DNA of 59,385 bases from positions 1 through 59,385 of the forward strand of contig JAITHJ010000011.1 of assembly GCA_031280035.1 (NCBI GenBank), given 5' to 3'. This document shows, piece by piece, positions 1 to 29,055 of the stretch. Below the pieces are notes generated by a model. The model did no database searches and was not told the origin of the DNA. It saw nothing but the letters and a program-made list of their open reading frames with translations. The stretch comes from Spirochaetaceae bacterium (GTDB lineage: Bacteria > Spirochaetota > Spirochaetia > Treponematales > Breznakiellaceae). Position numbers and translations under genes: made by a program. How positions within the stretch are numbered: position 1 is the stretch's first letter; each line of letters begins with the position of its first letter.

Positions 1-158
1 GTCTTTGCGCCGGCTGCGGAATCCTGCGTCTTACCGGCGGGAGCCTGAGACTGCGCGCCTGGGGCAAACGGATTGCCTTGCCCTCCTGAATGCTGGGCGT
101 CCAGCGCGCCACAGATGAAGACGGCAAAAACCGCCGTTAGAAAAAACTTGTTATTCAT
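1..158 (-). CDS. 5' part of an exported-protein gene running off the left edge (MNNKFFLTAVFAVFICGALDAQHSGG...)
   Basis: ATG at complement 156-158, with AGGAGG (complement 164-169) 5 nt upstream. The N-terminus is hydrophobic and signal-peptide-like, and the frame stays open to the window edge. It is too short for the ORF track. Confidence 0.5.
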   Translation of the reverse strand, partial: MNNKFFLTAVFAVFICGALDAQHSGGQGNPFAPGAQSQAPAGKTQDSAAGAK

Positions 159-181
159 ACTATCCTCCTGATTTTTTGTGA

Positions 182-490
182 TTATTCGCCTGTTACAATG
201 GTCGTGTATTCCGTCCAGAGAAATAAAATGCCCGGCCTATTGTAATACTCCACTGTGGCTATCTTCGTTATGTGTCCGTTACTCGCCGCTTCGGAAATGG
301 TCGGGTAGCTGACGTCCCCAAAAAAAGAAAGCCACACTTTAGACGAAGCGAACCCCGTCTTTGACGACCCGCCGTTTACGTTACTCAGCGTAGGATGCGG
401 CCCGTTAAACAATGAAGAGGCCGGAGAAGACGCGCATCCGGCCAGAACAGCGGCGCACAGCAGCGCCGTTACCATAAATTTTTTAATCAT
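182..490 (-). CDS. TRL-like family small lipoprotein
   Basis: Lipobox LAGC after a hydrophobic signal peptide. The C-terminal pattern ...ISEAASNGHITKIATVEYYNRPGILFLWTEYTTIVTGE resembles the TRL-like family signature (...GGITKI..VDY......Y....V.GE). AAGGAG SD upstream. Confidence 0.75.
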   Translation of the reverse strand: MIKKFMVTALLCAAVLAGCASSPASSLFNGPHPTLSNVNGGSSKTGFASSKVWLSFFGDVSYPTISEAASNGHITKIATVEYYNRPGILFLWTEYTTIVTGE

Positions 491-590
491 ACTTTGCTCC
501 TTGTAAGGTATGTTTTTTTATTTTTACCCCGCCGCGCGGGGATGATTTGAGGAAGTTTGAGCCGAAAGTCCGCGCGCGCGTTCCGGCTTT

Positions 591-884
591 CTGGAAATCT
601 ACGGCTCGCTTCTATAAATCTACGGCTCGCTTCTATAAATCTACGGCTCGCTTCTATAAATCTACGGCTCACTTCTATAAATCTACGGCTCGCTTCTATA
701 AATCTACGGCTCGCTTCTATAAATCTACGGCTCACTTCTATAAATCTACGGCTCACTTCTAGAGTTCTACGGCTCGCTTCTATAAATCTACGGCTCGCTT
801 CTGGAAATCTACGGCTCGCTTCTGGAAATCTACGGCTCGCTTCTGGAGTTCTACGGCGCATTTCTAGAAGTCTACAGCGCGCTC
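591..884. repeat. 21-bp direct tandem repeat, ~14 copies (consensus CTATAAATCTACGGCTCGCTT; edge copies CTGGAAATCT.. / CTAGAGTTCT..)
   Basis: Read directly. Units start at 591, 612, 633 ... 864 with strict 21-nt phasing and a few point variants (cgctt/cactt, tataaa/tggaaa). The last two units are degenerate. Confidence 0.95.
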
Positions 885-1097
885 CCGAAAATCCGCGCCG
901 CGCGGAGGATAATCTGTTGTAGAGGAAGTGTATTTTGTCGAATGCGGACGGTAATCCGCCGTGCGCGGAATGTCTGTCCGCGCGCGCGCTTTTCTGCGGG
1001 CTTTCGGATACCGCTCTATCCACGGCAGTCTCCCGAAAAGAAGAAAAACAGGAACAAAAAAGAACGCGGTAAAAGGGGGTTTTTAAGAGAGCGGCGC

Positions 1098-1108
1098 GGG
1101 GGGGGGGG
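1098..1108. repeat. G11 homopolymer tract in the manC upstream region
   Basis: gcggcgc-GGGGGGGGGGG-agtg, read directly. It lies ~240 nt upstream of the manC ATG, in an 850-nt non-coding gap. Confidence 0.9.
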
Positions 1109-1344
1109 AGTGTAATTTCCGCGCCGCGCGGGCTTAAGCCGGCGCGCTAAAACGGCGCGGTTTAGGCCCCGTACAAGACCGGAATCGTTCAAACAGGTAA
1201 ACGCCGCCTCACTCATAGGCGGCATCTTACTCCTGATTAAAAAAAACGTCAAGAGGCCGCGCGCGCCGTCAGTGCCCAAGGCGGAATGCCCGCGTTCATC
1301 CTGACCGCTTGACTTTTCTTTCCGCATACCGCTTAAATATTTCT

Positions 1345-2751
1345 ATGGGAATTCATGTACTTATACTTGCCGGAGGTTCAGGAACGCGGCTTTGGCCGCT
1401 TTCCCGTGAAGACGTCCCCAAGCAGTTTCTTTCGGTTTTTGACGGAAAGGCTTCGCTGCTCCAGCAAACCGTCATGCGAATCCGTGAGTTTTCGGAACAG
1501 ACCGGCGGAACGCTTCACATAATCGCGGCAAAGAAGTTCGCCGCCCTGGTATCTCAGCAGATGGCCGAAATCACTATTGACGGGGACCTCCTGCTGGAAG
1601 AACCGGAAGGGCGCAATACCGCGCCCGCCATCGCGCTGGGGCTGACGCGCCTGTTGCAGAAGGACGTTCCGTCTCAGGATACCGTTATCGTGCTGCCCAG
1701 CGATCATCTTATCAGGGACGAGTCGGGTTTCCGGCAGGCGGTGCAGAAAGCGGTCCGCGCCGCCGGATCGGGCAATATCGTACTATTCGGCGTTGTGCCG
1801 CTAAAGCCGGAGACGGGTTTTGGATACGTAAAGACCGTTAAAACGAATAATTCATCGTGGCGAAAAGTTGAATCGTTTGTTGAAAAACCGGATCTGGAAA
1901 CCGCGCAAAAGTACGTTGAGTCAAACGCCTATTTCTGGAATGCGGGAATCTTTTGCTTTCGTATAAAAGATATGGTTGAAGCGTACCGGAACTATTTTCC
2001 CGAAGGCGCCCGTATCTTCAATGAAAGCGCCGCCAGCCGTAAGCGGGCGGAAGCGGCCTTTTTGAAAGTAAAGCCGGTTTCAATCGATTACGCCGTCATG
2101 GAACACGCCCAGAATATCGTCTGCATTGAATTAAACGCCGGATGGTCGGACGTAGGCTCGTGGGATGCGGTCTGGGAAAATTCCCCGCATGATGAAAACC
2201 ACAACGCCGTTTCAGGCGATGTGTGTCTGCATAACTGCGAAGGCGTCTTTGTCCACGGCGGAAAAAAACTCATCGCCGCCGTCAACCTGAAAGATATCGT
2301 CATTGTCGATACAAATGACGCGCTGTTTATCGCGCCGCGGCAGGCCTCGCAGGAGATACGCGCCGTTGTTCAGCGGATTTCCAAAGAACGATGCAGCGCG
2401 TCCGCTTTACTGAACAAGCCATGGGGAACCTGTGAGTTTCTTGAAAAACAGAACTATTACCAGATAAAACGCATAATACTGCTCCCCGGAAAAGAAATAC
2501 CGTTCCATTATCACCGTAACAGTTCCGGCCACTTAACGGTACTGAAAGGAACGGTCATTGTTGACTGCTTCCTCCCGGAAACACAGCCGCAGAGCAGGCC
2601 GCTCGGTGAAGGCGAAAGTATTCTGATTGAAAAGGGATTTATACATCATGTCGCAAATAATACCGCCGAGCCGTGTGAAATAATCGAAGTACAGACAGGA
2701 GACTGCAGCGCCGAAGATTATCAGGAATACCAGTTTAATGCCGGTCAGTAA
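1345..2751 (+). CDS. manC: mannose-1-phosphate guanylyltransferase / mannose-6-phosphate isomerase (bifunctional ManC/CpsB type)
   Basis: N-terminal nucleotidyltransferase motif LILAGGSGTRLWPLSR..PKQF and a C-terminal cupin (ENRPWG-like NKPWGTCE, HYHRNSS.H). I placed the start at the ATG at 1345 (MGIHVLIL) rather than the TTG at 1309 used by the ORF track. Confidence 0.9.
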   Translation: MGIHVLILAGGSGTRLWPLSREDVPKQFLSVFDGKASLLQQTVMRIREFSEQTGGTLHIIAAKKFAALVSQQMAEITIDGDLLLEEPEGRNTAPAIALGLTRLLQKDVPSQDTVIVLPSDHLIRDESGFRQAVQKAVRAAGSGNIVLFGVVPLKPETGFGYVKTVKTNNSSWRKVESFVEKPDLETAQKYVESNAYFWNAGIFCFRIKDMVEAYRNYFPEGARIFNESAASRKRAEAAFLKVKPVSIDYAVMEHAQNIVCIELNAGWSDVGSWDAVWENSPHDENHNAVSGDVCLHNCEGVFVHGGKKLIAAVNLKDIVIVDTNDALFIAPRQASQEIRAVVQRISKERCSASALLNKPWGTCEFLEKQNYYQIKRIILLPGKEIPFHYHRNSSGHLTVLKGTVIVDCFLPETQPQSRPLGEGESILIEKGFIHHVANNTAEPCEIIEVQTGDCSAEDYQEYQFNAGQ

Positions 2752-2821
2752 CAGAGCGTCTTCTAACGTTCCAGAGCGTAATACTCCTGCGCGTACTATT
2801 CCAGAACACCGCGCGGAGAGA

Positions 2822-4174
2822 ATGGTTTTTTTTGCGCTGTTTGCCTTTGTTATAATAGGCGCCGCCGCGCCCGCCGCGCCGTCAGACATCGAATGGTATA
2901 CCGCCAACGGTTCGGGAATGCTGCTTGAAAAAGTAGATAGAGTCCGCGCGCTGCGATTCGCTTACGCCGTCTCCGTTCAAAATTTAAAGCCGGAAAACGC
3001 CCCCAAAGGACTTCGCAGATTCTACACAACTCCGTGGCGGATAGAATGCCGCGTTCTTTACGAAAAAGCGCGGAGGGTAAGAACTCAATGGATCTTTAAA
3101 GATACTGGGGGTACGACATACCTTATCGCCGTCATAAGCAACGATGGATCCGGCTTTATCGAATGGCATGACGGCAACGGCTATGTTGTTGAAGAACAAA
3201 GACTCGCCGCCGACGGTTCGGGTTTTTTTATTTCCTATACCTACCGCGAAACGTACCTTCTAAAAGCCGATGTATACCTCATCGAAGCCGCCGTCCCATC
3301 AGGCGGCGCGCAGACAGGCGCGGCGGACGGGGCTGCACAGAACGCGCCAAAGCAGACTGCGCCGTCAAACGCGCCGGCGAGCGGCGCAGCGAATAACGGC
3401 GCGCAGACCGCTTTATCAGACGCTTCGGCGGATGACGCGGCGGACGGGACGGCGCAGACCGGAGCCGTGCAGGACGCTTTGTCAGACGCGCCGCCGGATG
3501 ACGCGGAGCCGCCGCCGCCGCAAATATCGGAGGCTGAACGGGTGCGAAACCCTGAAGGGCCGATGGCTTTTCCCGAAAACTTTATTGCAGCCTCAGGCAG
3601 GGAAAGAGGCAGGGCCTGGACGGATAATTACCGTTACACCCGCGACCTGAGCCTTCGCGCCATCGAGCGGGTTTATTACGATCCAAAAGCGGCTGAAAAA
3701 GCGCAGCGTGTTTTATTTCCGCGCTTTGTCTTAGGCTCGTCCGTAGATAAAGACTTTGTAAGGCCGGGCGCGTCTCTTGCCTCAGAGTTTCTTAAAGATG
3801 TTTATGATGAAACGCCGGCTTCCATCACCTATTTAACGGATGATAAGCGCAGAATACTCTCCGAAACCAGAAAAGATGAAACCGGAGAGATTATAGGCGA
3901 AATATCGTACGAATGGGATAATAACAGGGTAACGTCAATCGTGTGGAAATCGAAAGATGATGAACGTAAAATAGAATTCCTCTATAATGGAAAGGGCGAG
4001 AGGATAAGTGAAAAAGATTATCGCAACAGCGCGCTTGAAAGAATGGTAACCGTTAATGGCGATACGGAAATAGAAGAACTCTATCTTGAAAATAATGTCG
4101 CGCTCAGGGCCGTCTGGAAAGACGGAAAAAAAATATCCGAGGAAAGGATCTTGAACAGAAGAGTAGAACGATGA
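2822..4174 (+). CDS. hypothetical exported protein with a central Ala/Gln/Asp/Pro low-complexity linker
   Basis: Long ORF. The likely start is MVFFALFAFVIIGAAAPAAP (a hydrophobic N-terminus). The stop overlaps the lolC-like start (ATGA at 4171). The C-terminal part has YD-like beta-hairpin periodicity (weak signal). No family recognised. Confidence 0.6.
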   Translation: MVFFALFAFVIIGAAAPAAPSDIEWYTANGSGMLLEKVDRVRALRFAYAVSVQNLKPENAPKGLRRFYTTPWRIECRVLYEKARRVRTQWIFKDTGGTTYLIAVISNDGSGFIEWHDGNGYVVEEQRLAADGSGFFISYTYRETYLLKADVYLIEAAVPSGGAQTGAADGAAQNAPKQTAPSNAPASGAANNGAQTALSDASADDAADGTAQTGAVQDALSDAPPDDAEPPPPQISEAERVRNPEGPMAFPENFIAASGRERGRAWTDNYRYTRDLSLRAIERVYYDPKAAEKAQRVLFPRFVLGSSVDKDFVRPGASLASEFLKDVYDETPASITYLTDDKRRILSETRKDETGEIIGEISYEWDNNRVTSIVWKSKDDERKIEFLYNGKGERISEKDYRNSALERMVTVNGDTEIEELYLENNVALRAVWKDGKKISEERILNRRVER

Positions 4175-5508
4175 GAAAAAAAATGTTTTCCGGCTTTGAA
4201 TGGATTTTCTTTGTAGTCATGCGCTCCCTTTCAAAAAAGAAAAACCGCAGTGATGTTTCATCTGTTCTTTCGATTTTTGAAATAGGCGCGGGAGTTCTTG
4301 CGCTTACGGTAATCATCGCCGTGATGAATGGGTTTCAGCTTGGCTTTATTGAAAACATACTTGAAATATCATCGTATTATATCCGTATAGATAATTTTCC
4401 AAAAGATAAATTATCCTTGCTTGGTGAATTCAAAAAAAATACGGAAATAGTATCCGCTGTTCCGTTTATAGAAACACAGGGCATTGTACGTGAGGAATTT
4501 AAAGATATGCAGTGCGCTGTTGTTTTGCGCGGAGTTCCTGAAAACGCAGTTGAAGAAGATCGCGGCATGGGTGGTCATCTTGAATTTATTGAAGGCGGCT
4601 TTGACGTTAAAAAGCCGCATTCGCTGCTTTTGGGCGCGGAATTGGCGGCAAACCTTGGCATAGAAACAGGCGATGAGATAGATTTTCTTTCTATTTCAAA
4701 TATTTTTTCCGTTGATGAAGATTCGTCCTTGCGTACTTTCACTGTAACAGGCGTGTTTCGTACAGGATATTATGAATACGATTCAAGCTGGGGGTTTATC
4801 AATATTGAAGACGCCGCCGCTGTTGAAAATGATAAAGAAGTTTGTACAATCGGCATAAAACTTAAAAACCGGTACAACGACATAATTACAATGCCTGAAA
4901 TAAAAAGCATAATAGACAATGCCTTTACAGAAAATGAACCGGGTAAATCCGGCATTGTAATAAGTTCGTGGCGTGATTACAATAAATCGTTTTTTAACGC
5001 GCTGCGTACGGAAAAGCTTCTTATGTTTGTACTCGTTGGTCTTATATTTATTGTTGTGGCGTTGAATATTTATCAGGCGCAGCGCAGATCCGTTCTTGAG
5101 CGCAGCGAAGAAATCGGTTTGCTGAGGGCGGTTGGCGCTCCGGATCTTTCAGTTCGGCTGACTTTTGCGCTAAAGGGGCTTGTAATCGGACTTATAGGCG
5201 CTTCTGGAGGCATGTTTTTTGCCCTTTTAATATCAACGCATATACAAGGCTTTTTTTCATTGATAGAATCAATCATTACGCTTGTAATAAAAGCTGCCTA
5301 TGCGGTAAGGGGCATATTTTACGGCAGTGATAATTTTGCTTTTTTTTCAAAAAATATATTTTATATACATGAATATACTGCACGGCTTATCGCAGGTGAA
5401 GTACTGTTTATTTATGTTTTTGCCGTACTGTCGGCGTTTATGGCTGCGTGGTTCGCTTCAGCCCGTATAAGCAGAATTAAGCCGTCGGAAATACTGCGCA
5501 ATGAATAG
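4171..5508 (+). CDS. LolC/E-family (FtsX-type) ABC transporter permease
   Basis: N-terminal TM, then a large periplasmic MacB-like domain, then a C-terminal FtsX-like TM bundle (RSEEIGLLRAVGA motif). It sits adjacent to a LolD-like ATPase. Confidence 0.8.
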   Translation: MRKKMFSGFEWIFFVVMRSLSKKKNRSDVSSVLSIFEIGAGVLALTVIIAVMNGFQLGFIENILEISSYYIRIDNFPKDKLSLLGEFKKNTEIVSAVPFIETQGIVREEFKDMQCAVVLRGVPENAVEEDRGMGGHLEFIEGGFDVKKPHSLLLGAELAANLGIETGDEIDFLSISNIFSVDEDSSLRTFTVTGVFRTGYYEYDSSWGFINIEDAAAVENDKEVCTIGIKLKNRYNDIITMPEIKSIIDNAFTENEPGKSGIVISSWRDYNKSFFNALRTEKLLMFVLVGLIFIVVALNIYQAQRRSVLERSEEIGLLRAVGAPDLSVRLTFALKGLVIGLIGASGGMFFALLISTHIQGFFSLIESIITLVIKAAYAVRGIFYGSDNFAFFSKNIFYIHEYTARLIAGEVLFIYVFAVLSAFMAAWFASARISRIKPSEILRNE

Positions 5509-20528: not shown

Positions 20529-21692
20529 TTACAATATGTTAAATTTTATATCACCGCCGGCTATAACTGTCAAGATACGCCAGTTCTTATCAAACACGGT
20601 TAAATCCGCATCCCCTCCGGGTACCAGCGCGCCTTTATTTAAATATCTCATAATGCGCGCCGGATTTGTTGACGCAGCGCGGACAGCGTCTTCCAGACTG
20701 AAGCCAAACTCAACCAGATTTTCAATGCCTTTTATCATCGTAAGCGCGCTGCCGGCGATTACGCCGTCCGATTTTCGCCGCCACAATCCGCCGGAAAATT
20801 CGACTTCTTCACTGTTAGCAAAGTAGGGCGGGGACTCCATATCCGTAGGTTTGAGGCTGTCTGTAACAAGTACAATATTTGCCGCACTTTTATCGCGCAG
20901 GAGAAACTGAAACAGCGCTTTGTGTACGTGCAGGCCGTCAGCTATGACTTCGCACGTTGTTTCATGATGAATTAGTATGGCGCCGGCTGCATTGGGATTC
21001 CGGTGTTCCATTGCGCTCATTGCGTTAAATAAATGTGTTGTATGAAAAATGCCGGCGAGTATGCCTTCGACCATATTTTCATAGCTGGCGTTTGTATGGC
21101 CGGCTTGAAGGACGATGCCTTTTTTTTCGCAGTAAAGCGCAAGTTCATGCATGTTTTTAAGTTCAGGTGCAACAGTCATGTTTATGATATGTCCTTGCGC
21201 GGCGTTCCAAAGCTCTTCCATAAATGGTATGTCGACGGAGCGCAGGAACTCAGGCTTTTGTACGCCCAGATATTTGGGCGAGAGAAACGGTCCTTCAAGA
21301 TGAAATCCCATAATTTTTGCGCCTGTTTCTTTGCCGATTGCAGGCAGCAGAGCTTTTATTACACTGACCATATCGGCGCTTGGATATAACGTTGGGTTAA
21401 AGGCTGTTACACCGTATTTTATAAGAAACTTTGACATTTCAATCAGTGCATCTGCAGATTCATCGTCCGTACCGAAACCTCCTGCGCCGTGGATATGCGT
21501 ATCTATGAATCCCGGGGTTATGTAGGCTTTATTTACGTCAATAATGCGCGTGTTATTTGTAAATCTTTTTTGAGCGAGTCTTTTCTGGGTGAAAACATCG
21601 GAAACTACGCCGTCTTCTATTAGGACAGCGCAGTTTTCGATAGTTGAAAAACCTGTAAATATTGTTCCGTTATGCAGACAAACCGAAGACAT
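20529..21692 (-). CDS. nagA: N-acetylglucosamine-6-phosphate deacetylase
   Basis: GFIDTHIHGAGG metal motif, HLEGPF, AGHTNA. Adjacent to nagB. Confidence 0.92.
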   Translation of the reverse strand: MSSVCLHNGTIFTGFSTIENCAVLIEDGVVSDVFTQKRLAQKRFTNNTRIIDVNKAYITPGFIDTHIHGAGGFGTDDESADALIEMSKFLIKYGVTAFNPTLYPSADMVSVIKALLPAIGKETGAKIMGFHLEGPFLSPKYLGVQKPEFLRSVDIPFMEELWNAAQGHIINMTVAPELKNMHELALYCEKKGIVLQAGHTNASYENMVEGILAGIFHTTHLFNAMSAMEHRNPNAAGAILIHHETTCEVIADGLHVHKALFQFLLRDKSAANIVLVTDSLKPTDMESPPYFANSEEVEFSGGLWRRKSDGVIAGSALTMIKGIENLVEFGFSLEDAVRAASTNPARIMRYLNKGALVPGGDADLTVFDKNWRILTVIAGGDIKFNIL

Positions 21693-21757
21693 AAGTTAGT
21701 CTATATGGTAAGCGGCTTATAGTCAATTACACGGCGGTTTTCCGGCTGTTAAGAAAG

Positions 21758-22891
21758 TTAGATTTCGCGCGTAACCTTTCCTTTGCCGGAAATTTTTTCG
21801 GTAAGCTGCGGATTGCCGCGGTAAACGACTTCACCTGCGCCGGAAATGTGTACGACAAGGTTATCTTTGCACCACACGCGCGCTCTGCCGGAACCGCTTA
21901 TGTCAAGATTTGCCATACTGACGGGAAAGTTGTTTGCGTCAAACGTTCCCGCGCCGCTTAATACAACGCGTACTTCTTGCATTCGGTCAAACACATTGTC
22001 GATAACTTCAATGCCGCCCGAACCGTCCATCAAAAAAACAAAGATGTTTGGCGTATATACATCGAGTACGCATTCGGTAAACTCAAGTTTTTTACCAAAC
22101 AATCCTTTTGTGCCAATACGCAGCATATTCTTCCTGACGATTATATCAAGATATTCTTTAAGATTCGCGTCGCAGTTTAGCGTAATTTTGTTTTCCGCAC
22201 TCTTATGCACACGAACGGTTACACCGTCCAGCATTGATTCAATGCCGGTAAATTCAGGAAGCGTTTGTTCAACCAGTTCTGTTACGCCACTGCCGCGTAT
22301 GGTTTTTCCGCCGCCGCGTGTTTTTTCGGTTATTTCTGGATTACCTTTACAGATAACGTTTCCCTGTCCAAGCGTTTCAATTGAAAGATTGTTTTCAGCC
22401 CATACACGCGCCGTGCCCGCGCCGGTAATTTTAACGCGCGCTGTTTCCACCGGAAACGCATCTGCTATAACATTACCAGAGCCTAAAACATCAATATTCA
22501 ACGTTTTACCGGCAAAGACATTATCAAGTATTTCTACATTGCTTGAGCCCTTAATAAAAATGCCGTTTAATTCATTCGTCCACACATCAACCGTAAAGAT
22601 AGTGAACTGGATATTTTTGTTAAACTGCCATTTTGAGCCGGTATATAAAACATTGTTTTTAACGGAGAGATCAACATATTCCTGCAAATTGGCGTCGGTA
22701 TTAAGAATGATTTTATTCTCCGCGCCTTTATGCACACGAATAAGAACGCTTCCCGTTGATTCAATTGCGTAAAAAGGCGCAATCTGTTTTTCTATAGACG
22801 CCGCAACGCCGTTTCCTTTGATAACATTCAACGAACATGAGACGAACGCCGCGCCCGCAAGAACCGCAAAAAAAAATTTTGTTTTTTCCAT
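21758..22891 (-). CDS. lipoprotein with two tandem DUF2807 (head GIN) domains
   Basis: Start at MEKTKFFFAVLAGAAFVSCS (lipobox), with GAGGAG SD. There is an internal duplication (..RVHKGAENKIILNTDANLQEYVD.. / ..RVHKSAENKITLNCDANLKEYLD..). GSG/GAG beta-helix-like repeats. Confidence 0.75.
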   Translation of the reverse strand: MEKTKFFFAVLAGAAFVSCSLNVIKGNGVAASIEKQIAPFYAIESTGSVLIRVHKGAENKIILNTDANLQEYVDLSVKNNVLYTGSKWQFNKNIQFTIFTVDVWTNELNGIFIKGSSNVEILDNVFAGKTLNIDVLGSGNVIADAFPVETARVKITGAGTARVWAENNLSIETLGQGNVICKGNPEITEKTRGGGKTIRGSGVTELVEQTLPEFTGIESMLDGVTVRVHKSAENKITLNCDANLKEYLDIIVRKNMLRIGTKGLFGKKLEFTECVLDVYTPNIFVFLMDGSGGIEVIDNVFDRMQEVRVVLSGAGTFDANNFPVSMANLDISGSGRARVWCKDNLVVHISGAGEVVYRGNPQLTEKISGKGKVTREI

Positions 22892-23003
22892 AAGAAACTC
22901 CTCTATAAGTTTTATCATTGATAAAATATTTATTCCATTCAACTGCACAATAATGCTGCTGAATGTTCTTTAATCCACCAACGGCGGCATATAAAGACAA
23001 AAA

Positions 23004-24422
23004 TCATTCACGTAGAAGAATACCTTCTTTTTTCAAAACGGTTAATGCATTGTTAAATTCTGCCAGTATTGTATCTATAGAAAATAAATATAATGATTGA
23101 TGTAAAGAAACAAAATCAATGCTTTCAACTAGCAGATCTTTAACAGTAATTCCTTCAACTTTATTTTGCAATGTTAATAGTATTGAAAAAAAGTATAGGT
23201 CAGTTATTTTATAAACTTCTGTTTGTTCGTGATTATAAAGATACATAACATTTTCAATTATATCATACGTAACAAGTTTATTTAATATTATGATTTCAGT
23301 CTCATGTAATTTATCTCGCAATTCATTTTGTATTCGTTCTTTTTCAAGAAAAAATATTTTTTTACAAGATGCCGGCGCGCTTTGTTTATCATTTTTATTA
23401 AGTCTTACTACTGTGCATGGAGTACATTCTTTTTTAAAGAATTTACATAAATTCTTGCATTCAGAGTAAATATTATTTAAACCAACACTGTACACATAAT
23501 TAAACTCTCTGAAAAGCGGTGCTTGTATAAGCGTGCTTATATCAGTGCTGGAAAGATTTATTTTTTCGAGATGTTTTTCTTTATAGATTTTTACAGTTTT
23601 TTCATTCTCCGTCAATCTATCACATGGATAAATAAAACCTTTCCAATCTATATAAGAATAGCCAAAACCAGCACTGCATGTACGCACAGGTAATTTAAGA
23701 TTATATCCATATTTATTATTAATATAATCAACAATAAGAGGTGAAGAAAATTTTGGAATTAATTGACAGTTAACATTTTTTTGTAGTGCGCCCAAACATT
23801 TTACAAGTTCAAACAATTCGTCTTGTGTAAACTCTTGAATATATTTATTATCTTTTTCAGTTATCAGTTCAAGTCCTATCCATTCATCAATGCCAATATC
23901 ATCAAGAAAGGTTATTAAGTATCCTAATTCAGCGATATTTTGCTTTGTAATAACAGTATTGACACAAATTTTATAAGGATTATTCTTGCATAGATTTTTT
24001 AGATTATCAATAACTACATCGTAAACTTTTCCACCGCGTATTTTATTGTGCGTTTCTTTAATACCGTCAATGCTTATTACTATTAAATCGATACAGGATA
24101 ATTTACGTAATTTTTCAATATATTGTTTTTTTAAAAGAAAGCCATTGGTATTGATGCCGACTTTTATTCCGCTTGTATTATTCTCTATATAAGTAAGAAT
24201 ATCCAAAAAATCTTTTCTATGCGTGGGTTCTCCGCCAAGAAACTGAATATGAGTAACGCCTATAGAATTTAATTTTGATAGAATAGTATAAATATCCGTT
24301 GTATCAATGTCCTTATAAAAATCATTTTCACGTTCTTTTTTATTGATGCAAAAAGAACATGCAAGGAAACATTGTTTGGTAATATCCCATTTTATGTTTT
24401 TAAGAAACATCTTTACCGCCAT
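23004..24422 (-). CDS. radical SAM / SPASM-type peptide-modifying enzyme with C-terminal PqqD-like (RRE) extension
   Basis: CX3CX2C motif at residues 18-25 (CFLACSFC) and a GGEPT motif. The SPASM-like region is CSAGFGYSYIDWKGFIYPC (Cx12Gx4C), followed by CKNLCKFFKKECTPC. The last ~100 aa (..LVTYDIIENVMYLYNHEQTEVYKITDLYFFSILLTL..GITVKDLL...LKKEGILL) follow the PqqD/RRE pattern. The gene is very AT-rich. Confidence 0.85.
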   Translation of the reverse strand: MAVKMFLKNIKWDITKQCFLACSFCINKKERENDFYKDIDTTDIYTILSKLNSIGVTHIQFLGGEPTHRKDFLDILTYIENNTSGIKVGINTNGFLLKKQYIEKLRKLSCIDLIVISIDGIKETHNKIRGGKVYDVVIDNLKNLCKNNPYKICVNTVITKQNIAELGYLITFLDDIGIDEWIGLELITEKDNKYIQEFTQDELFELVKCLGALQKNVNCQLIPKFSSPLIVDYINNKYGYNLKLPVRTCSAGFGYSYIDWKGFIYPCDRLTENEKTVKIYKEKHLEKINLSSTDISTLIQAPLFREFNYVYSVGLNNIYSECKNLCKFFKKECTPCTVVRLNKNDKQSAPASCKKIFFLEKERIQNELRDKLHETEIIILNKLVTYDIIENVMYLYNHEQTEVYKITDLYFFSILLTLQNKVEGITVKDLLVESIDFVSLHQSLYLFSIDTILAEFNNALTVLKKEGILLRE

Positions 24423-24516
24423 TTTAAAAAAGACAGGGATAATATTTGCATATTGTCCCTATCATTAGCATAATTGCAAATCAATGAGATTTGCAGTTGC
24501 TCCAACCACATTGATA

Positions 24517-24544
24517 ATTTAAGAGAGATATCTCTCTTAAATTT
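24517..24544 (-). terminator. perfect palindromic hairpin directly after the small-ORF stop (attenuator/processing stem)
   Basis: AATTTAAGAGAGATATCTCTCTTAAATT read directly. It overlaps the TAA stop at 24543-24545. There is no strong U-tract, so it is likely a partial terminator. Confidence 0.55.
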
Positions 24545-24620
24545 ACTCAGCTTCACAAAGATTGCAAAGATTGAGTGCAGGTGCTAAAATTGGAGCAAGT
24601 TCATCAGTGATTTTTTCCAT
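24543..24620 (-). CDS. candidate RiPP precursor peptide, 25 aa: MEKITDELAPILAPALNLCNLCEAE
   Basis: Hand translation of the minus strand. AGGAGG lies 6 nt upstream of the ATG (complement 24618-24620). It is 120 nt upstream of, and co-oriented with, the rSAM/SPASM gene. It has two Cys in a C-terminal NLCNLC motif. It is not in the ORF track because it is under 60 aa. Confidence 0.6.
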   Translation of the reverse strand: MEKITDELAPILAPALNLCNLCEAE

Positions 24621-24646
24621 TTATTTCCTCCTATTTATTAAGATTT

Positions 24647-24678
24647 TTTATAGTGCGCTGTATTTGCGTACTTGTCAA
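24647..24678 (-). promoter_or_regulatory. possible promoter for the peptide/rSAM unit (TTGACA ... CACTAT/TATAAA)
   Basis: The minus strand reads cTTGACAagtacgcaaatacagcgCACTATAAAaaatc. The spacer is 17 nt to CACTAT or 20 nt to TATAAA, so the -10 assignment is ambiguous. Confidence 0.35.
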
Positions 24679-24725
24679 GGTTTTTTACCAATTAACAATA
24701 ATATGTACAAGGGATTATTTCGCTA

Positions 24726-25571
24726 TCAAGAAACATGTACATAAATATTCTTAAAATTAAATGCAGCTTTAAACTTGACAAGCTTTTCTTTTGCGCTGGT
24801 GTAAGATTTTATGCCATATAGCGCAAAGTAAAATGCAAGTTCTTTTTCCAATGAATTACGAAGAAGGCGTATTTTTCTTTTTACGTCTAGCGGCATTACA
24901 GGAAATAAAGCAATATTTTCATTATAGATCTCTTCACAAAAAGCTTTAGCGTATTTATTCTTGTATTTATTTACATAAACATCTTCAATAATTTTATATT
25001 CATTGTATGTTTGATCGAGTACAGAGCGAAAGCCTTCTATACATTGTGTTTCACATAAACAAAGCCCGCTTACTACATTTGATTCTGCATCATACATAAC
25101 ATAAAGTACTTCGAATGCGCGTTCTTTAAAAAAAGAAATTTGCATAGTAAAAGTATAAAATACATGAAATCCTTTTATTAAATCAGCATCCTTGTAAATC
25201 ATATTTATATTATATTTACGCGAACATCCAATATTTGCGTTTTTTAGGAGAATGCGTAATGTATTGTATGAAATAAGAATATTGTTTTCTTTTAGCTTTT
25301 CTTTGATTTGCCTGATATTACAATTGGCGTATATATCACTTTGCACCAGTCCAATGATCCTCTTTCGTGTTTCTTCGCTGGTATAATTTGCCGGATGTTT
25401 GTTGGTATTACCATGAATAAACGCTTTTTTGCCGTATTTTCTTAATAATAAAACAAGCTGTTGAACACGCCGTACGCTTAGTCCAAGTTTTTGTGCAATT
25501 TCTCGAGTAGTACAGATACCATTAACTACATCTTTAATTAAGGTATATACGCGGTTTTGTTTTTCTGTCAT
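24726..25571 (-). CDS. HTH protein related to the N-terminal two-thirds of ISNCY-family (IS1202-group) transposases; truncated and probably non-catalytic
   Basis: The region YTLIKDVVNGICTTREIAQKLGLSVRRVQQLVLLLRKYGKKAFIHGNTNKHPANYTSEETRKRI matches the characteristic ISNCY N-terminal HTH/..HGNRG..P.N.. pattern. A residual ..LYVMYDAESN.. segment resembles the first part of the DDE core. At 281 aa it is shorter than the ~450+ aa I recall for such transposases. AT-rich. Confidence 0.6.
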   Translation of the reverse strand: MTEKQNRVYTLIKDVVNGICTTREIAQKLGLSVRRVQQLVLLLRKYGKKAFIHGNTNKHPANYTSEETRKRIIGLVQSDIYANCNIRQIKEKLKENNILISYNTLRILLKNANIGCSRKYNINMIYKDADLIKGFHVFYTFTMQISFFKERAFEVLYVMYDAESNVVSGLCLCETQCIEGFRSVLDQTYNEYKIIEDVYVNKYKNKYAKAFCEEIYNENIALFPVMPLDVKRKIRLLRNSLEKELAFYFALYGIKSYTSAKEKLVKFKAAFNFKNIYVHVS

Positions 25572-26076
25572 TTCAGTCCCCTTAATCTGATAATCTTGCC
25601 TTCTTACCGAAGGTAGGGTGTCTGCGCGCTATGAGCCGTAAACCGCTCTTGTTACTGAGATAGTGCGGAAATATAAGGAAACCTGAGAAAATATATCCGC
25701 AACACGCGGGGGTAGATAAAATGACGCGCCGAATTGTACAAGTTTTTGCTGTTGGTTACGCCATGTACTATACCGCCATTATTCATGGTAGACAGTATAT
25801 CAGCGCGGCATTTAGTTTGTCAACCGGTATCAAATAGTCCGTTGTCAGTTGCCGGATTTTAGCTATTCTTGCAAATATATAACTATAAAAATAAGATATA
25901 TATCTATTAGATTTAAATCTTGAGCTTTTTACGTAAAAACTTTAGATTACGGCTTGTTGGGTTTAGGCAGCCGGCGCATAGAGGCGCACTGTGGGGCTTG
26001 CGGATAAACTTGCAATGCCTGCGACTCTATGATAGACTTGCCGTTGTAAAATAGAGCGCTGTTTTGGAGTTGTAGT

Positions 26077-29055
26077 TTGTTTCTTAAAAGTCTTGATATT
26101 TTTGGTTTTAAATCCTTTGCCGATAAAACCCATATCGAATTCTCAGACGGAATTACCGCCCTTCTCGGGCCTAACGGCTGCGGAAAATCAAATGTCGTTG
26201 ACGCCATAAAATGGACGCTCGGCGAACAAAGATCCGCCGCCATGCGCGCCGAAAAAATGGAGGATGTCATTTTTAACGGCTGCGAATCACGCCACGCCCT
26301 CGGCGTAGCCGAAGTCGCCCTCGTTCTTGCCAACGATAACGGCCTGCTCCCGCGTGAAGAAGCCGAAATCGAAATTAAACGCCGCCTCTACCGATCGGGT
26401 GAAAGTCAGTATTTCATCAACAACCAAGAGAAAAAACTTAAAGATATCCGCGAGCTTTTTTGGGATACAGGCGTTGGTAAAGCCGCCTATTCCGTCATGG
26501 AACAAGGAAAAATCGACCAAGCCCTCTCCTCAAAGCCAGAAGAACGCCGCTATCTCTTTGAAGAAGCCGCCGGTATCACCAAATTTAAGGTGAAAAGTAA
26601 AGATGCCGAACAAAAACTCGCTAAAACTGAAGAAAATGTGCGCCAAGTCGAGGGAATTCTTAAAGAAGTAAAACATTCTCACGACAGCCTTAAAGTCCAG
26701 GCCGAAAAAACCTTGAAATACCGCAGCCTTAAAGATGAGGCCTTTGTTCTTGAACGCGATATTCAGCTGTTACGCCTCAAACAATTCCGTAATGAACATA
26801 ATGCACGCGAGGAAACACTCAGAAAACGTAAAGAAGAACGCGACTTCGTTAAAGCCGAACTCGATGCCGTTACTCAGGCCGTTGGAGAAAGTATGGATGT
26901 AGTCAATGATCTCCAATCCCAATTTAACGCTGCCCAGGTTGAGATTTTCGGACTGGCTAAAGAAAAACAGGGGCTGTACGATAATATAAAGCTGCTCGGC
27001 GAACAACGCGACGGATGTAAAAATATAATCACCTCCAATGAGAACCGTAAAACCGCCGCCGGCCTTAAAATCGAAGAATTATGCGCCGGCGCTGAAGAAC
27101 AGGACGGCATCGTCCTCGATATAAAAAAGAAAGTCGCCGCCATGGAAGAGCAAATAGCTTCCTTTGAACAGAATATCAATCTGGTTTCCTCCCAAATCAA
27201 CGAAAATGAAAAAAAAATCGGTCTCAATGAAGAAGAAATCATACAGCTCGAAAAACGGCAGCGCGTTCTTGAAGAAGAACTTGAAAGTATAACAGGTCGG
27301 CTCGTTACAGAGCTTGACCGCGGACTTAAGGACGCAAACTATTCACGTTCAGAGCGTGAAAACGCGGCAACAGCCCTTGAAGAATCGCTTAGCAAGATAA
27401 AAACAACGCTTGCAGGTAGAAAAGCGATACTGGAAGATCTTGCCGCCGCCGCCGACCGCGCGTCAAGCGGAGGAACGCTGCCTAAACCGGAAGAAATACA
27501 CCGTATCACGCTGAATCTGTCCGAAGAACTCGCCGCCGCCGCCGCGGAATCTGAACGTGCGCTGGATTTTTTTACCACGTACCGGAAAAATACGCCGTCT
27601 TTTCTAGACGAATTCCTTGCGCCTGAAGGAACTATAACAAGAAAACGAAATATAGACAGTGAAATCCACTCGGCAAAAGATACGGTGGCCGCAAAACGTA
27701 ACGAAATATTCAGTCTGCGGGAAGAAAACGGCGGCCTTGGTGTAAAAATCGAGCAGTATCGCACTACCCTACACGATCAAAGAGTAAGCCGTGCACAAAT
27801 GAACGCTCAATCCGGCGCGGCGGAAGAACAGGCCAGACTTATCCGGCGGGAACTCACCGGTCAGCAGGGACAGCTTAAGAATATTGAAGATGAACTTTTT
27901 CTCGCGCGGAAGCGGCTTGAAGAGGTCATTGAACGAATCGAGAATACCGAACACGATATAACCGAAATCGAAGCGAAAGAAAGCCGGCTTGCCTGTAATA
28001 GGGAAAAACTCGAAAAAGAGATAGCGGCACGGTCAAGCGACGTCTCCGGTAAACAGGACGAAATAACAAAAAAGAACGAAGAACTTTCAGGAATTAACAT
28101 AAGCCTTGAGCGTATTCATCTTGAACTTCTCCAGTCCGATACGGAAATAAAAAATATTCAGGATAATTTCCGTGAAACGCACTCCCGCGATCTTCTGGAA
28201 TTTGAAGAAAGAATGTACCAAATAACTTCAAACGCACAGGAGCTGCGTGAAAAACTTTCTGAAATACGTGAGACGCTTAAATCACTCGGTTCAGTAAATT
28301 TCATGGCGCCTGAAGAATTTACCGAGGTTAAAGAACGTTTCGATCATCTTACATCCCAAATGAACGACTTAAGCGCCGCCCGCGCGGATTTAGAAAAAAT
28401 TGTGGCTGAAATCCGCGCTGAGTCTTCAGAGAAATTCATGCTGACCTATAACAAAATCAAAAAGAATTTTCATAATATGTTCCGCCGGCTTTTTGGAGGC
28501 GGGCAGGCGCAGCTTAGGCTTACCGACAACAATCACGTATTAGAATCGGGTATTGAAATATTCGCACAGCCTCCGGGTAAAAAACTTGAAAATATTACCC
28601 TGCTTTCCGGCGGCGAAAAATCAATGACCGCCGTCGCATTGTTATTTGCCACCTATATGGTAAAGCCTTCGCCTTTTTGCCTGCTTGACGAAATTGACGC
28701 GGCGCTGGACGAAGATAACGTCGGGCGTTTTGTACAGCTTCTTCATGAATTCGGCAGTACAAGTCAGTTTATCATAATTACTCATAATAAAAAAACGGTT
28801 ATTGGGGCGTCTACTCTGCTGGGAATTACAATGCAGGAAAAAGGCATCACCAAAACTATTGCCGTTAAGCTCCAGAATGAAGAAGAGGCAGTTAGAAATT
28901 CGCCGCCGCCTGTTATCGGAGAATTTGGAGAATTTGTGGAGGAAGACGTTGAGCCTGAAGAAGGGCGCGAGCTTCCAGCCGGTATAAACGACCCTAACGC
29001 AGTCAGCGAGGTCGAAATTCATCCGATACGAAGCGGTTTGCCGGAAAAGACCTGA
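26077..29055 (+). CDS. smc: chromosome partition protein SMC
   Basis: N-terminal FLKSLDIFGFKSF...LLGPNGCGKSN, long coiled coils with a hinge, and C-terminal LSGGEKSMTAVALLFA...LLDEIDAALD. TTG start. Confidence 0.93.
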   Translation: MFLKSLDIFGFKSFADKTHIEFSDGITALLGPNGCGKSNVVDAIKWTLGEQRSAAMRAEKMEDVIFNGCESRHALGVAEVALVLANDNGLLPREEAEIEIKRRLYRSGESQYFINNQEKKLKDIRELFWDTGVGKAAYSVMEQGKIDQALSSKPEERRYLFEEAAGITKFKVKSKDAEQKLAKTEENVRQVEGILKEVKHSHDSLKVQAEKTLKYRSLKDEAFVLERDIQLLRLKQFRNEHNAREETLRKRKEERDFVKAELDAVTQAVGESMDVVNDLQSQFNAAQVEIFGLAKEKQGLYDNIKLLGEQRDGCKNIITSNENRKTAAGLKIEELCAGAEEQDGIVLDIKKKVAAMEEQIASFEQNINLVSSQINENEKKIGLNEEEIIQLEKRQRVLEEELESITGRLVTELDRGLKDANYSRSERENAATALEESLSKIKTTLAGRKAILEDLAAAADRASSGGTLPKPEEIHRITLNLSEELAAAAAESERALDFFTTYRKNTPSFLDEFLAPEGTITRKRNIDSEIHSAKDTVAAKRNEIFSLREENGGLGVKIEQYRTTLHDQRVSRAQMNAQSGAAEEQARLIRRELTGQQGQLKNIEDELFLARKRLEEVIERIENTEHDITEIEAKESRLACNREKLEKEIAARSSDVSGKQDEITKKNEELSGINISLERIHLELLQSDTEIKNIQDNFRETHSRDLLEFEERMYQITSNAQELREKLSEIRETLKSLGSVNFMAPEEFTEVKERFDHLTSQMNDLSAARADLEKIVAEIRAESSEKFMLTYNKIKKNFHNMFRRLFGGGQAQLRLTDNNHVLESGIEIFAQPPGKKLENITLLSGGEKSMTAVALLFATYMVKPSPFCLLDEIDAALDEDNVGRFVQLLHEFGSTSQFIIITHNKKTVIGASTLLGITMQEKGITKTIAVKLQNEEEAVRNSPPPVIGEFGEFVEEDVEPEEGRELPAGINDPNAVSEVEIHPIRSGLPEKT

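Follow-up and report, generated by a model that had tools for sequence, protein, structure and literature searches.

Among the enzymes that modify RiPPs (peptides that are synthesised ribosomally and modified post-translationally), the CteB/SCIFF maturases and SuiB have their RiPP recognition element (RRE) ahead of the radical S-adenosylmethionine (SAM) core. A C-terminally fused RRE has been described for the proteusin radical SAM epimerases of the PoyD/OspD type (PMC7470986, PMC8326336). According to one of these papers, these enzymes have the radical SAM cluster only and no SPASM auxiliary clusters, and they epimerise but do not cross-link their substrates. As to cross-linking enzymes, NxxcB forms a thioether between the C-beta of Asn and the S of Cys, the Cys thiol being probably bound to an auxiliary cluster (PMC9389541, PMC8326336), and QmpB forms a thioether between the C-alpha of Asn and the S of Cys (PMC11851443). 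Here we have analysed a stretch of 59,385 nucleotides from a Spirochaetaceae bacterium (contig JAITHJ010000011.1), hereafter called the window, in which a radical SAM/SPASM enzyme gene (23004-24422, minus strand) lies downstream of a very short peptide gene. We consider it likely that the two make up a minimal RiPP cassette on a low-GC island, in which a 25-residue precursor is served by a maturase with its leader-binding RRE at the C-terminus, making Cys-Asn thioethers. This explanation draws on in silico evidence of five kinds, namely the class to which the enzyme belongs, its seven-Cys region, the RRE fold predicted for its tail, and the conservation of both the precursor family and the gene order.

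The radical SAM core and the auxiliary-cluster region

In the list of open reading frames (ORFs), the radical SAM/SPASM peptide maturase gene begins with ATG and encodes 472 aa. Its radical SAM core, taken from the Pfam stretch, covers residues 14-171 (23910-24383, minus strand) and contains a GGEP motif and the CX3CX2C motif CFLACSFC at residues 18-25, with C18, C22 and C25. The score against PF04055 (Radical_SAM) is 85 bits, where the cut-off is 29.5. In a 51-sequence alignment, C18, C22, C25 and G63-G64-E65-P66 are all near-invariant. We have found five full-length homologues with 37-43% identity (E 1e-82 to 1e-102). The AlphaFold2 model of the full-length enzyme, also from a 51-sequence alignment, reaches a mean predicted local distance difference test score (pLDDT) of 91.5 and a predicted TM-score (pTM) of 0.90, and its top neighbours in Foldseek are SuiB, SkfB, BlsE, CteB and anSME (E 1e-11 to 1e-14). 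Given the PF04055 score, the full-length homologues and the confident AlphaFold2 model, the ORF is a genuine intact gene and no chance ORF.

The start of the gene deserves a comment. The close homologues all begin with MF[LV]xN[IV]KWD, and M5 of the listed protein is invariant. Since all of them start at the equivalent position, the true start is probably the ATG at 24410 (M5), giving 468 aa, while the listed M1 (24422) lies four codons early. With this start the first cluster Cys is residue 14, which therefore leaves even less room for an N-terminal RRE. The classic relatives in the same search, by contrast, have ~95 residues ahead of the first Cys, and one of them (P0035) carries Pfam PqqD at residues 41-97.

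The SPASM-type auxiliary-cluster region, delimited by motifs and family alignment, spans residues 249-353 (23364-23678, minus strand) and has seven conserved Cys. A script read-out of the translation places the Cys residues of the whole enzyme at positions 18, 22, 25, 110, 145, 153, 209, 219, 249, 267, 322, 326, 333, 336 and 353. The Cx12Gx4C motif is CSAGFGYSYIDWKGFIYPC at residues 249-267 (C249-x12-G262-x4-C267), and the CX3CX6CX2C motif is CKNLCKFFKKECTPC at residues 322-336 (C322-x3-C326-x6-C333-x2-C336). Across the family alignment, C249, G262, C267, C322, C326, C333, C336 and C353 are invariant or nearly so. That is, the enzyme shows the seven-Cys SPASM pattern of CX9-15GX4C, a four-Cys block and one distal Cys. 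The Pfam model PF13186 (SPASM) stays below its cut-off for the enzyme (17.2 vs 21.5 bits), and the match ends at residue 323, before the second Cys block.

The canonical four-Cys spacing CX2CX5CX3C is absent from the enzyme, which has CX3CX6CX2C. About 20 of its relatives carry CX2CX6C-x-P-C, in which the third Cys is shifted by one position and Pro is fixed before the fourth, and the remote SPASM matches in the same search carry the canonical CX2CX5CX3C. In the query and in P0002 the first spacer of the block is longer by one residue. Judging from these alignments, the unusual spacing is characteristic of the clade and departs, genuinely but modestly, from the canonical pattern. At the same time, no NCBIfam/TIGRFAM radical SAM equivalog reaches its cut-off for the enzyme. 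The best is TIGR04317 with 84.9 bits vs 380, and all 25 models listed are far below their cut-offs, W_rSAM_matur, NirJ, AhbC/D, MoaA, MftC, StsB, WgkB, PapB, PqqE and ScmE among them.

A sequence-only reading of this DNA had already called the product a radical SAM/SPASM enzyme, and the PF04055 score, the seven-Cys region and the SPASM structural neighbours confirm it. The reading was also right that the CX3CX2C motif starts at residue 18 (residue 14 if M5 is the start), that no space is left for an N-terminal RRE, and that the second auxiliary motif departs from the textbook SPASM spacing, which we now see to be clade-wide in ~20 relatives. Its proposal of a divergent subfamily agrees with two results: no NCBIfam model comes near its cut-off, and a profile of the C-terminal tail finds only 14 proteins.

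The C-terminal domain

After C353, the last family-invariant Cys, the enzyme continues for 119 residues. A linker helix (residues 351-371; 23310-23372, minus strand), assigned by DSSP on the AlphaFold2 models, leads from the SPASM region to a domain at residues 377-471 (23010-23294, minus strand), for which AlphaFold2, Foldseek and hhalign point to the RRE fold, i.e., a PqqD-like winged helix. Both AlphaFold2 models show strands at 377-380, 384-389, 392-397 and 402-406, and helices at 409-418, 427-441 and 449-465. The predicted tail thus has a three-stranded sheet and then three helices, like the solved RREs. In the full-length model the pLDDT of the tail is 92-97, falling to 76 for the last few residues. 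A tail-only AlphaFold2 model from 6 sequences has a pLDDT of 91.2 and the same topology.

We have compared the tail model with the PDB by Foldseek. The best match is TbiB1 with bound leader (5v1v; E 6e-4, TM-score 0.78 on target, root-mean-square deviation (rmsd) 2.5 Å), followed by further TbiB1 chains, TfuB1 with bound leader (6jx3), the PbtF RRE (8t19), McbB, ThcOx, CteB and MccB. The top 12 matches are RREs or RRE-containing proteins, the best PDB matches being almost all RREs, and no DNA-binding regulator is found among the leading ones. Overall, an RRE (winged-helix) fold of the enzyme tail is supported by these predicted models.

At the sequence level, the sole positive link comes from hhalign, where the tails of the close family match those of distant relatives with 80.5% probability and E 1.3e-5 over 76 columns, which span the whole domain. 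Several proteins with this domain order have a tail that Pfam does recognise: PqqD is called at residues 371-425 in P0021 (27.4 bits) and at 388-445 in P0028 (29.1 bits), and the second radical SAM gene of the locus L006 has SPASM at 252-328 and then PqqD at 386-449 (52.2 bits, E 8e-14). With the tail profile, a HMMER search of 1.84 billion representative proteins gave 14 matches. Twelve are same-family enzymes or fragments, and the two weakest (P0074 and P0075) fall outside this set; no bridge to annotated PqqD proteins appears among the 14.

For this part of the protein, the sequence-only reading had described ~100 residues after the auxiliary region with a strand-strand-strand/helix pattern, and both points agree with our results, the former with the 119 residues after C353 and the latter with two concordant AlphaFold2 runs. 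Its further claim of a PqqD-like C-terminal module has fared less evenly: the predicted fold and Foldseek favour it, but a PF05402 sequence match is not obtained. No profile assigned the tail to an unrelated domain, and structure prediction returned the winged-helix RRE fold.

As a separate observation, P0074 (383 aa) is an acidic repeat protein of four tandem ~65-residue units, IIYNIPTIGDAQIMYDELNDKVYYIDDGNPEEVGSLEEFLEEQGITMNDLKKE. In 4 stretches this unit aligns with positions 23-88 of the RRE-tail profile (E 5e-5), and the protein may consist of tandem RRE-like strand/helix units or may be a compositional artefact.

The candidate precursor peptide and its family

The ORF 120-132 nt upstream of the enzyme gene (24543-24620, minus strand) encodes a candidate precursor peptide of 25 aa, MEKITDELAPILAPALNLCNLCEAE, with a leader and a core of two Asn-x-Cys units. 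Reading of the sequence gives a Shine-Dalgarno motif AGGAGG 6 nt before its ATG (24627-24632, minus strand). When the six frames of the 59 kb are searched with the pattern N.C.{0,4}N.C, only two occurrences are found, and one of them is this ORF.

We have compared ten locus types, namely the window and the related loci L001-L005, L007, L013, L017 and L018. A homologous peptide is present at the enzyme gene in all ten; it lies directly upstream in nine, and in L001 a DUF2807 gene stands between the two. The peptide of L001, from a Termitinemataceae metagenome-assembled genome, is MKDVTNDYSPVPPDFNFCSNSCGKDKG. The others end in ...GASNACKGSNACIGSNACPTPY (L002), ...VQGSNACGGGSNACMISR (L003), ...HGDNACGGGSNACSLPGTSTK (L004), ...TGSNACNGSNACRGSNACQSVPILG (L005), ...RLNNNCNNNCSEPK (L007-L009, Anaerococcus tetradius by the NCBI label), ...KGKDQCNCGENGCNNC (L013-L015), ...AAGNNACGGGSNACGDTRNMD (L017) and ...AADNACGGGSNAC (L018). 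In the alignment of the ten peptides, C19, N20 and C22 are invariant (C-N-x-C) and N17 is near-invariant. Each peptide has 2-3 NxC units, seen across the family as NAC, NLC, NNC, NFC, NSC and NGC. All show the N-x-C spacing, and an NxxC motif was not found in the family precursors. The residues after the last Cys vary or are missing, as L018 ends in ...GSNAC and L013 in ...CNNC. In the leaders, the window and L001 share [IV]T[DN][ED][LY][AS]P[IV] (ITDELAPI and VTNDYSPV), and several of the other leaders have a K-F-[IVG] motif in common.

A perfect 12-bp stem-loop, AATTTAAGAGAG-ATAT-CTCTCTTAAATT (24516-24543, minus strand; RNAfold), begins at the precursor stop codon. Of eight loci folded, seven have a strong hairpin right after this stop codon, which is the usual arrangement of RiPP operons. 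The hairpin of the window has no T-run and was not called by the terminator scan, and it is a probable attenuator or transcript-stabilising element between the precursor and enzyme genes. The sigma-70 scan called no promoter before the precursor, where a TTGACA at ~24679 has a 20-nt spacer to TATAAA.

Six of the precursors were searched against NCBIfam, and no model rose above noise. An identity with BufA2 was rejected (14-17 bits vs a cut-off of 60). We also rejected another ORF as precursor (24413-24556, minus strand, 47 aa), which overlaps the enzyme start; it lacks both homologues and an NxC motif, and it extends across the hairpin. What the locus does offer is a short precursor gene beside a modifying enzyme, conserved across homologous loci, as expected of a RiPP cassette. 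From this conservation, 24543-24620 (minus strand) is likely the gene of the enzyme's substrate.

Related loci and the origin of the fusion

The search for related loci found only one remote relative each in GTDB representative genomes and in JGI metagenome contigs. Within the clade that shows the CX2CX6CxPC block, about half of the enzymes carry a tail of 98-128 residues, and the tail-less enzymes (355-360 aa) end 7-18 residues past the last Cys. An ATP-binding cassette (ABC) exporter lies directly downstream of the enzyme in L002-L005, L007/L008 and L013-L015, and is also present in L016-L019. These exporters (PF00664 and PF00005, 522-604 aa) have no N-terminal peptidase domain.

Two types of tail-less locus bear on how the fused form arose. 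In L016 (5070-5324) and L017 (4438-4692), an 84-aa ORF overlaps the stop codon of the 360-aa tail-less enzyme and precedes the ABC exporter. The 84-aa protein has no Pfam match and does not match the tail profile of the close family, and it matches the relatives' tail profile over its whole length (hhalign, 68% probability, E 4.7e-5). On this profile match it is likely a discrete RRE. In L018/L019 the exporter follows directly after the tail-less enzyme. Since one sister type has a separate 84-aa ORF overlapping the enzyme stop, the RRE most likely came to its C-terminal position when the enzyme gene fused with a separate RRE gene immediately downstream, or else the fused form was split in the reverse event.

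The locus L006 (2081-8372) is a different cluster. It has three tandem radical SAM/SPASM genes, two of them with a Pfam-positive C-terminal PqqD, and behind these come FemAB-family, AdoMet decarboxylase-like and BpsA_C genes. The upstream side showed no convincing NxC precursor; one candidate ORF ends in ...SKSGCGMCKHVYA.

Genomic context

The window stems from a termite-gut metagenome, for which no RNA run was found. In an independent assembly of a termite-gut metagenome run, 21000-26112 is contained in one contig with even depth, and the locus is therefore no assembly chimera. The GC content is 0.278 for the enzyme gene and 0.314 for the precursor region, and it is 0.455-0.467 for the flanking genes nagA, nagB and smc. 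On the upstream side, a truncated ORF resembling ISNCY-family transposases (24726-25571, minus strand, 281 aa, GC 0.309) covers the N-terminal helix-turn-helix (HTH) part only. It scores 74.7 bits against NF033594, whose cut-off is 250, over profile positions 2-195 of 368, and it marks the edge of the low-GC island, 23004-25571. The precursor and enzyme genes are thus located on a small island of ~2.6 kb that was acquired horizontally and has no exporter, as indicated by a GC content of 0.28-0.31 against ~0.46 in the flanks and by the position beside an insertion sequence (IS) fragment.

Directly downstream of the enzyme lies a gene for a DUF2807 (GIN-domain, beta-helix) lipoprotein (21758-22948, minus strand; PF10988, E 2.6e-39), whose GC content of 0.427 is host-like. 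In L001 the DUF2807 gene (3132-3839, plus strand) lies between precursor and enzyme, ending 24 nt before the enzyme start, and its GC content of 0.34 is island-like, in contrast to that in the window. The two proteins share 29% identity (E 9e-25). The DUF2807 protein could be an accessory or immunity protein that replaces the ABC exporter, or a coincidental neighbour.

We asked in addition whether the HTH/transposase-like neighbours of the window and of L001 are the same element, and rejected this, as they show no similarity. The best promoter-like site of the region is at 25794-25823 (minus strand), upstream of the ISNCY-like ORF, with TTGACA-18-TATACT and a TG (11/12). Rfam and tRNA scans of the window gave no matches. 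Positions 1-4000 of the window have a GC content of 0.525 vs 0.36-0.48 in the rest, which is another compositional boundary.

Proposed mechanism and alternative explanations

Under the cassette explanation, the N-terminal part of the peptide, with its ITDELAPI-type leader, would dock as an extra strand on the C-terminal RRE, so that the core NLCNLC could reach the active site. There the Cys thiol would occupy the open site of an auxiliary cluster, and the 5'-deoxyadenosyl radical would take an H from the alpha or beta carbon of the Asn two residues upstream. The resulting Cys-Asn thioether would close a three-residue ring. We propose one such ring per Asn-x-Cys unit, because Asn and Cys, always two residues apart, are the sole residues that the cores conserve. 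We infer that the enzyme tail binds the leader and, by analogy with described enzymes, the Cys-Asn thioether chemistry with its regiochemistry, and also that the cassette is active in the window's host without an adjacent exporter.

Several observations weigh against this explanation, and they are set out below together with the alternatives to which they lend support. The alternative with the best standing, though its chance is a minor one, keeps the cassette and its C-terminal RRE and changes the chemistry: the Cys could be joined to another acceptor, e.g., the C-terminal Glu, or the enzyme could catalyse epimerisation or oxidation. The thioether chemistry is proposed by analogy, and the motif here is NxC, whereas NxxcB uses NxxC. 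In addition, no core of the family diverges more than that of the window, NLCNLCEAE, which has no G-S-N-A-C consensus. It ends in CEAE, and PapB, a ranthipeptide enzyme, is described to form Cys-Asp/Glu thioethers (PMC9413430). Similar radical SAM/SPASM RiPP enzymes are known to catalyse very different reactions (PMC9389541), and no curated family model is at cut-off for this one. On the other hand, only the N and C of the NxC units are conserved in the family. Beyond the last Cys the sequence is free to vary or is missing, as in L018 and L013, so that an acidic downstream acceptor cannot be general.

There is also a small chance that the cassette of the window is a non-functional, IS-associated remnant of a larger cluster, which has lost the exporter while the enzyme ORF has stayed intact. 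Unlike in most family loci, no ABC exporter or protease is adjacent to the window enzyme, and six of seven other locus types do have an adjacent exporter. The truncated ISNCY transposase is directly upstream. Neither enzyme ATG (24408-24422 region) has a clear Shine-Dalgarno sequence, so the ribosome-binding site at the enzyme start is weak, in contrast to that of the precursor gene here and those of the enzyme genes of L002 and L004. Furthermore, in L001, the only other spirochaete copy, the enzyme gene (3863-5278) has an in-frame TAA at ~3998-4000, the break reading ...ILNIIA-stop-LEKENVERIIFLDGEP..., and the precursor ORF (2856-2939) and the hairpin are intact. Either this copy is a pseudogene, or the stop codon is a sequencing error or is read through, and the cassette may be decaying in the spirochaete lineage. 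However, the enzyme of the window keeps all catalytic residues, with all catalytic Cys and the GGEP motif intact, and in the precursor both the C-N-x-C that is invariant in the family and a perfect AGGAGG are preserved. Elsewhere in the window, near 9.8 kb, there is also a gene for a generic ABC exporter.

As for the RRE assignment, it is very unlikely, in our view, that the tail is a winged helix of a generic kind, which serves to bind DNA, to dimerise or to bind a partner and has no part in leader recognition. RREs and DNA-binding domains are structurally homologous, and RRE searches yield such false positives (PMC7470986). The assignment here rests on structures predicted from shallow alignments, and the sequence link to PqqD is thin. 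By hmmscan, even at E<=10, the isolated tail has no match to PF05402 (PqqD) or any other Pfam family, and six tails of the close family gave no PqqD match but just scattered chance matches. The tail profile finds no solved RRE among all PDB sequences, only a chance HLA match (E 1.9). With hhalign, nothing was obtained when the tail profile was compared with one bona fide PqqD domain, that of L006 gene 2, or when the single query tail was compared with the relatives' tail profile. Against the generic winged helix stand the top 12 Foldseek matches, which comprise RREs and no regulators, the fusion of the tail to an enzyme of a peptide-modifying class for which an RRE is normally required, and the homologues in which Pfam finds PqqD at the same position.

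Finally, it is hardly probable that the enzyme acts outside RiPP biosynthesis, as a viperin-like antiviral enzyme (PADLOC pVip models 76-81 bits; NCBIfam prokaryotic viperin NF038283 68.5 bits) or as an anSME-like maturase acting on, e.g., the DUF2807 lipoprotein (the gene is adjacent in both spirochaete loci, and anSME is among the structural neighbours), because the viperin matches are limited to the radical SAM core (residues 10-201 of the enzyme; for pVip, positions 5-188 of the 262 in the profile) and far below the NF038283 cut-off of 180, so that we reject this identity, viperins lack the SPASM Cys region, and most family loci have no DUF2807 gene yet the NxC peptide is always present.

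Significance

Going beyond the window, we tentatively put forward that the NxC-repeat peptides and their dedicated enzymes might constitute an undescribed RiPP family, with two to three three-residue (i to i+2) Cys-Asn rings and with an RRE that is absent, separate or fused; we would give this wider proposal somewhat less than an even chance. The family is tiny, comes from gut and termite-gut anaerobes, and is paired with very short peptides of repeated Asn-x-Cys units. If these peptides are cross-linked in the manner proposed, their thioether rings would be unusually tight, with possible use in peptide engineering.

RiPP genome-mining tools seek RREs by sequence profile and mostly expect them at the N-terminus or as a separate protein. 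Because the RRE proposed here is invisible to Pfam PqqD and lies after SPASM, such clusters are easily missed or filed as a generic "radical SAM protein". Near-identical cores would be served by enzymes whose RRE is fused, split off or lacking, a clean system for testing what the RRE contributes. If the family is indeed an undescribed one, it would also lend itself naturally to asking how RREs come to be fused and why, and whether an RRE works equally well from either end of a SPASM enzyme. These results do not overturn the current understanding but extend a known theme.

Comparison with known systems

NxxcB/NxxcA, of the Streptococcus orisratti ranthipeptide, and QmpB resemble the present system in having a radical SAM/SPASM enzyme and a short precursor with a conserved Asn and a nearby downstream Cys (PMC9389541, PMC11851443). 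The motif sets them apart, as described: in NxxcB it is N-x-x-C, while here it is N-x-C (i, i+2), repeated two to three times. No curated model links the enzymes, and for the present system the chemistry of NxxcB and QmpB is suggested by analogy. As to the sactipeptides and ranthipeptides, defined by a thioether from the Cys sulfur to an alpha carbon or to a non-alpha carbon, respectively, the sequences show features of the substrate, namely a conserved Cys together with a conserved Asn.

Regarding the architecture, CteB/SCIFF maturases (5WHY, 5WGG) and SuiB (5V1Q) likewise combine a radical SAM barrel, SPASM and an RRE in one polypeptide, and the RRE of CteB is also among the fold matches of the tail of the window enzyme. 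The difference is that the predicted RRE here comes after the SPASM region, and that the Cys spacing is CX3CX6CX2C and not CX2CX5CX3C. The proteusin epimerases share the C-terminal position of the RRE, and between them and the present enzyme no sequence relationship was detected.

PqqE+PqqD, MftC/MftB, StsB/StsC and WgkB/WgkC follow the same logic, in which a radical SAM/SPASM enzyme relies on a PqqD-type domain to hold the leader. In the sister loci L016/L017 the two parts appear to be split, like PqqE+PqqD, whereas in the window they are in one polypeptide and the tail has diverged too far for PF05402 to recognise it. TbiB1 and TfuB1 (5V1V, 6JX3; TM-score 0.74-0.78 on target, rmsd 2.3-3.0 Å, ~90 columns), which match the fold of the tail best, are stand-alone lasso-peptide proteins of another RiPP class, with just 12-14% identity.

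Literature searches for GSNAC, for NxC with radical SAM and for SPASM with a C-terminal RRE found no description of the family. The principle of a C-terminal RRE is already known, both from the proteusin epimerases and from other, uncharacterised proteins in which the radical SAM-SPASM-PqqD order is detectable by Pfam, so the domain order, though unusual, has precedents. The novelty appears to lie in the small family as such, with its NxC-repeat precursors, its clade-specific SPASM spacing, and the fused, split and absent states of its RRE.

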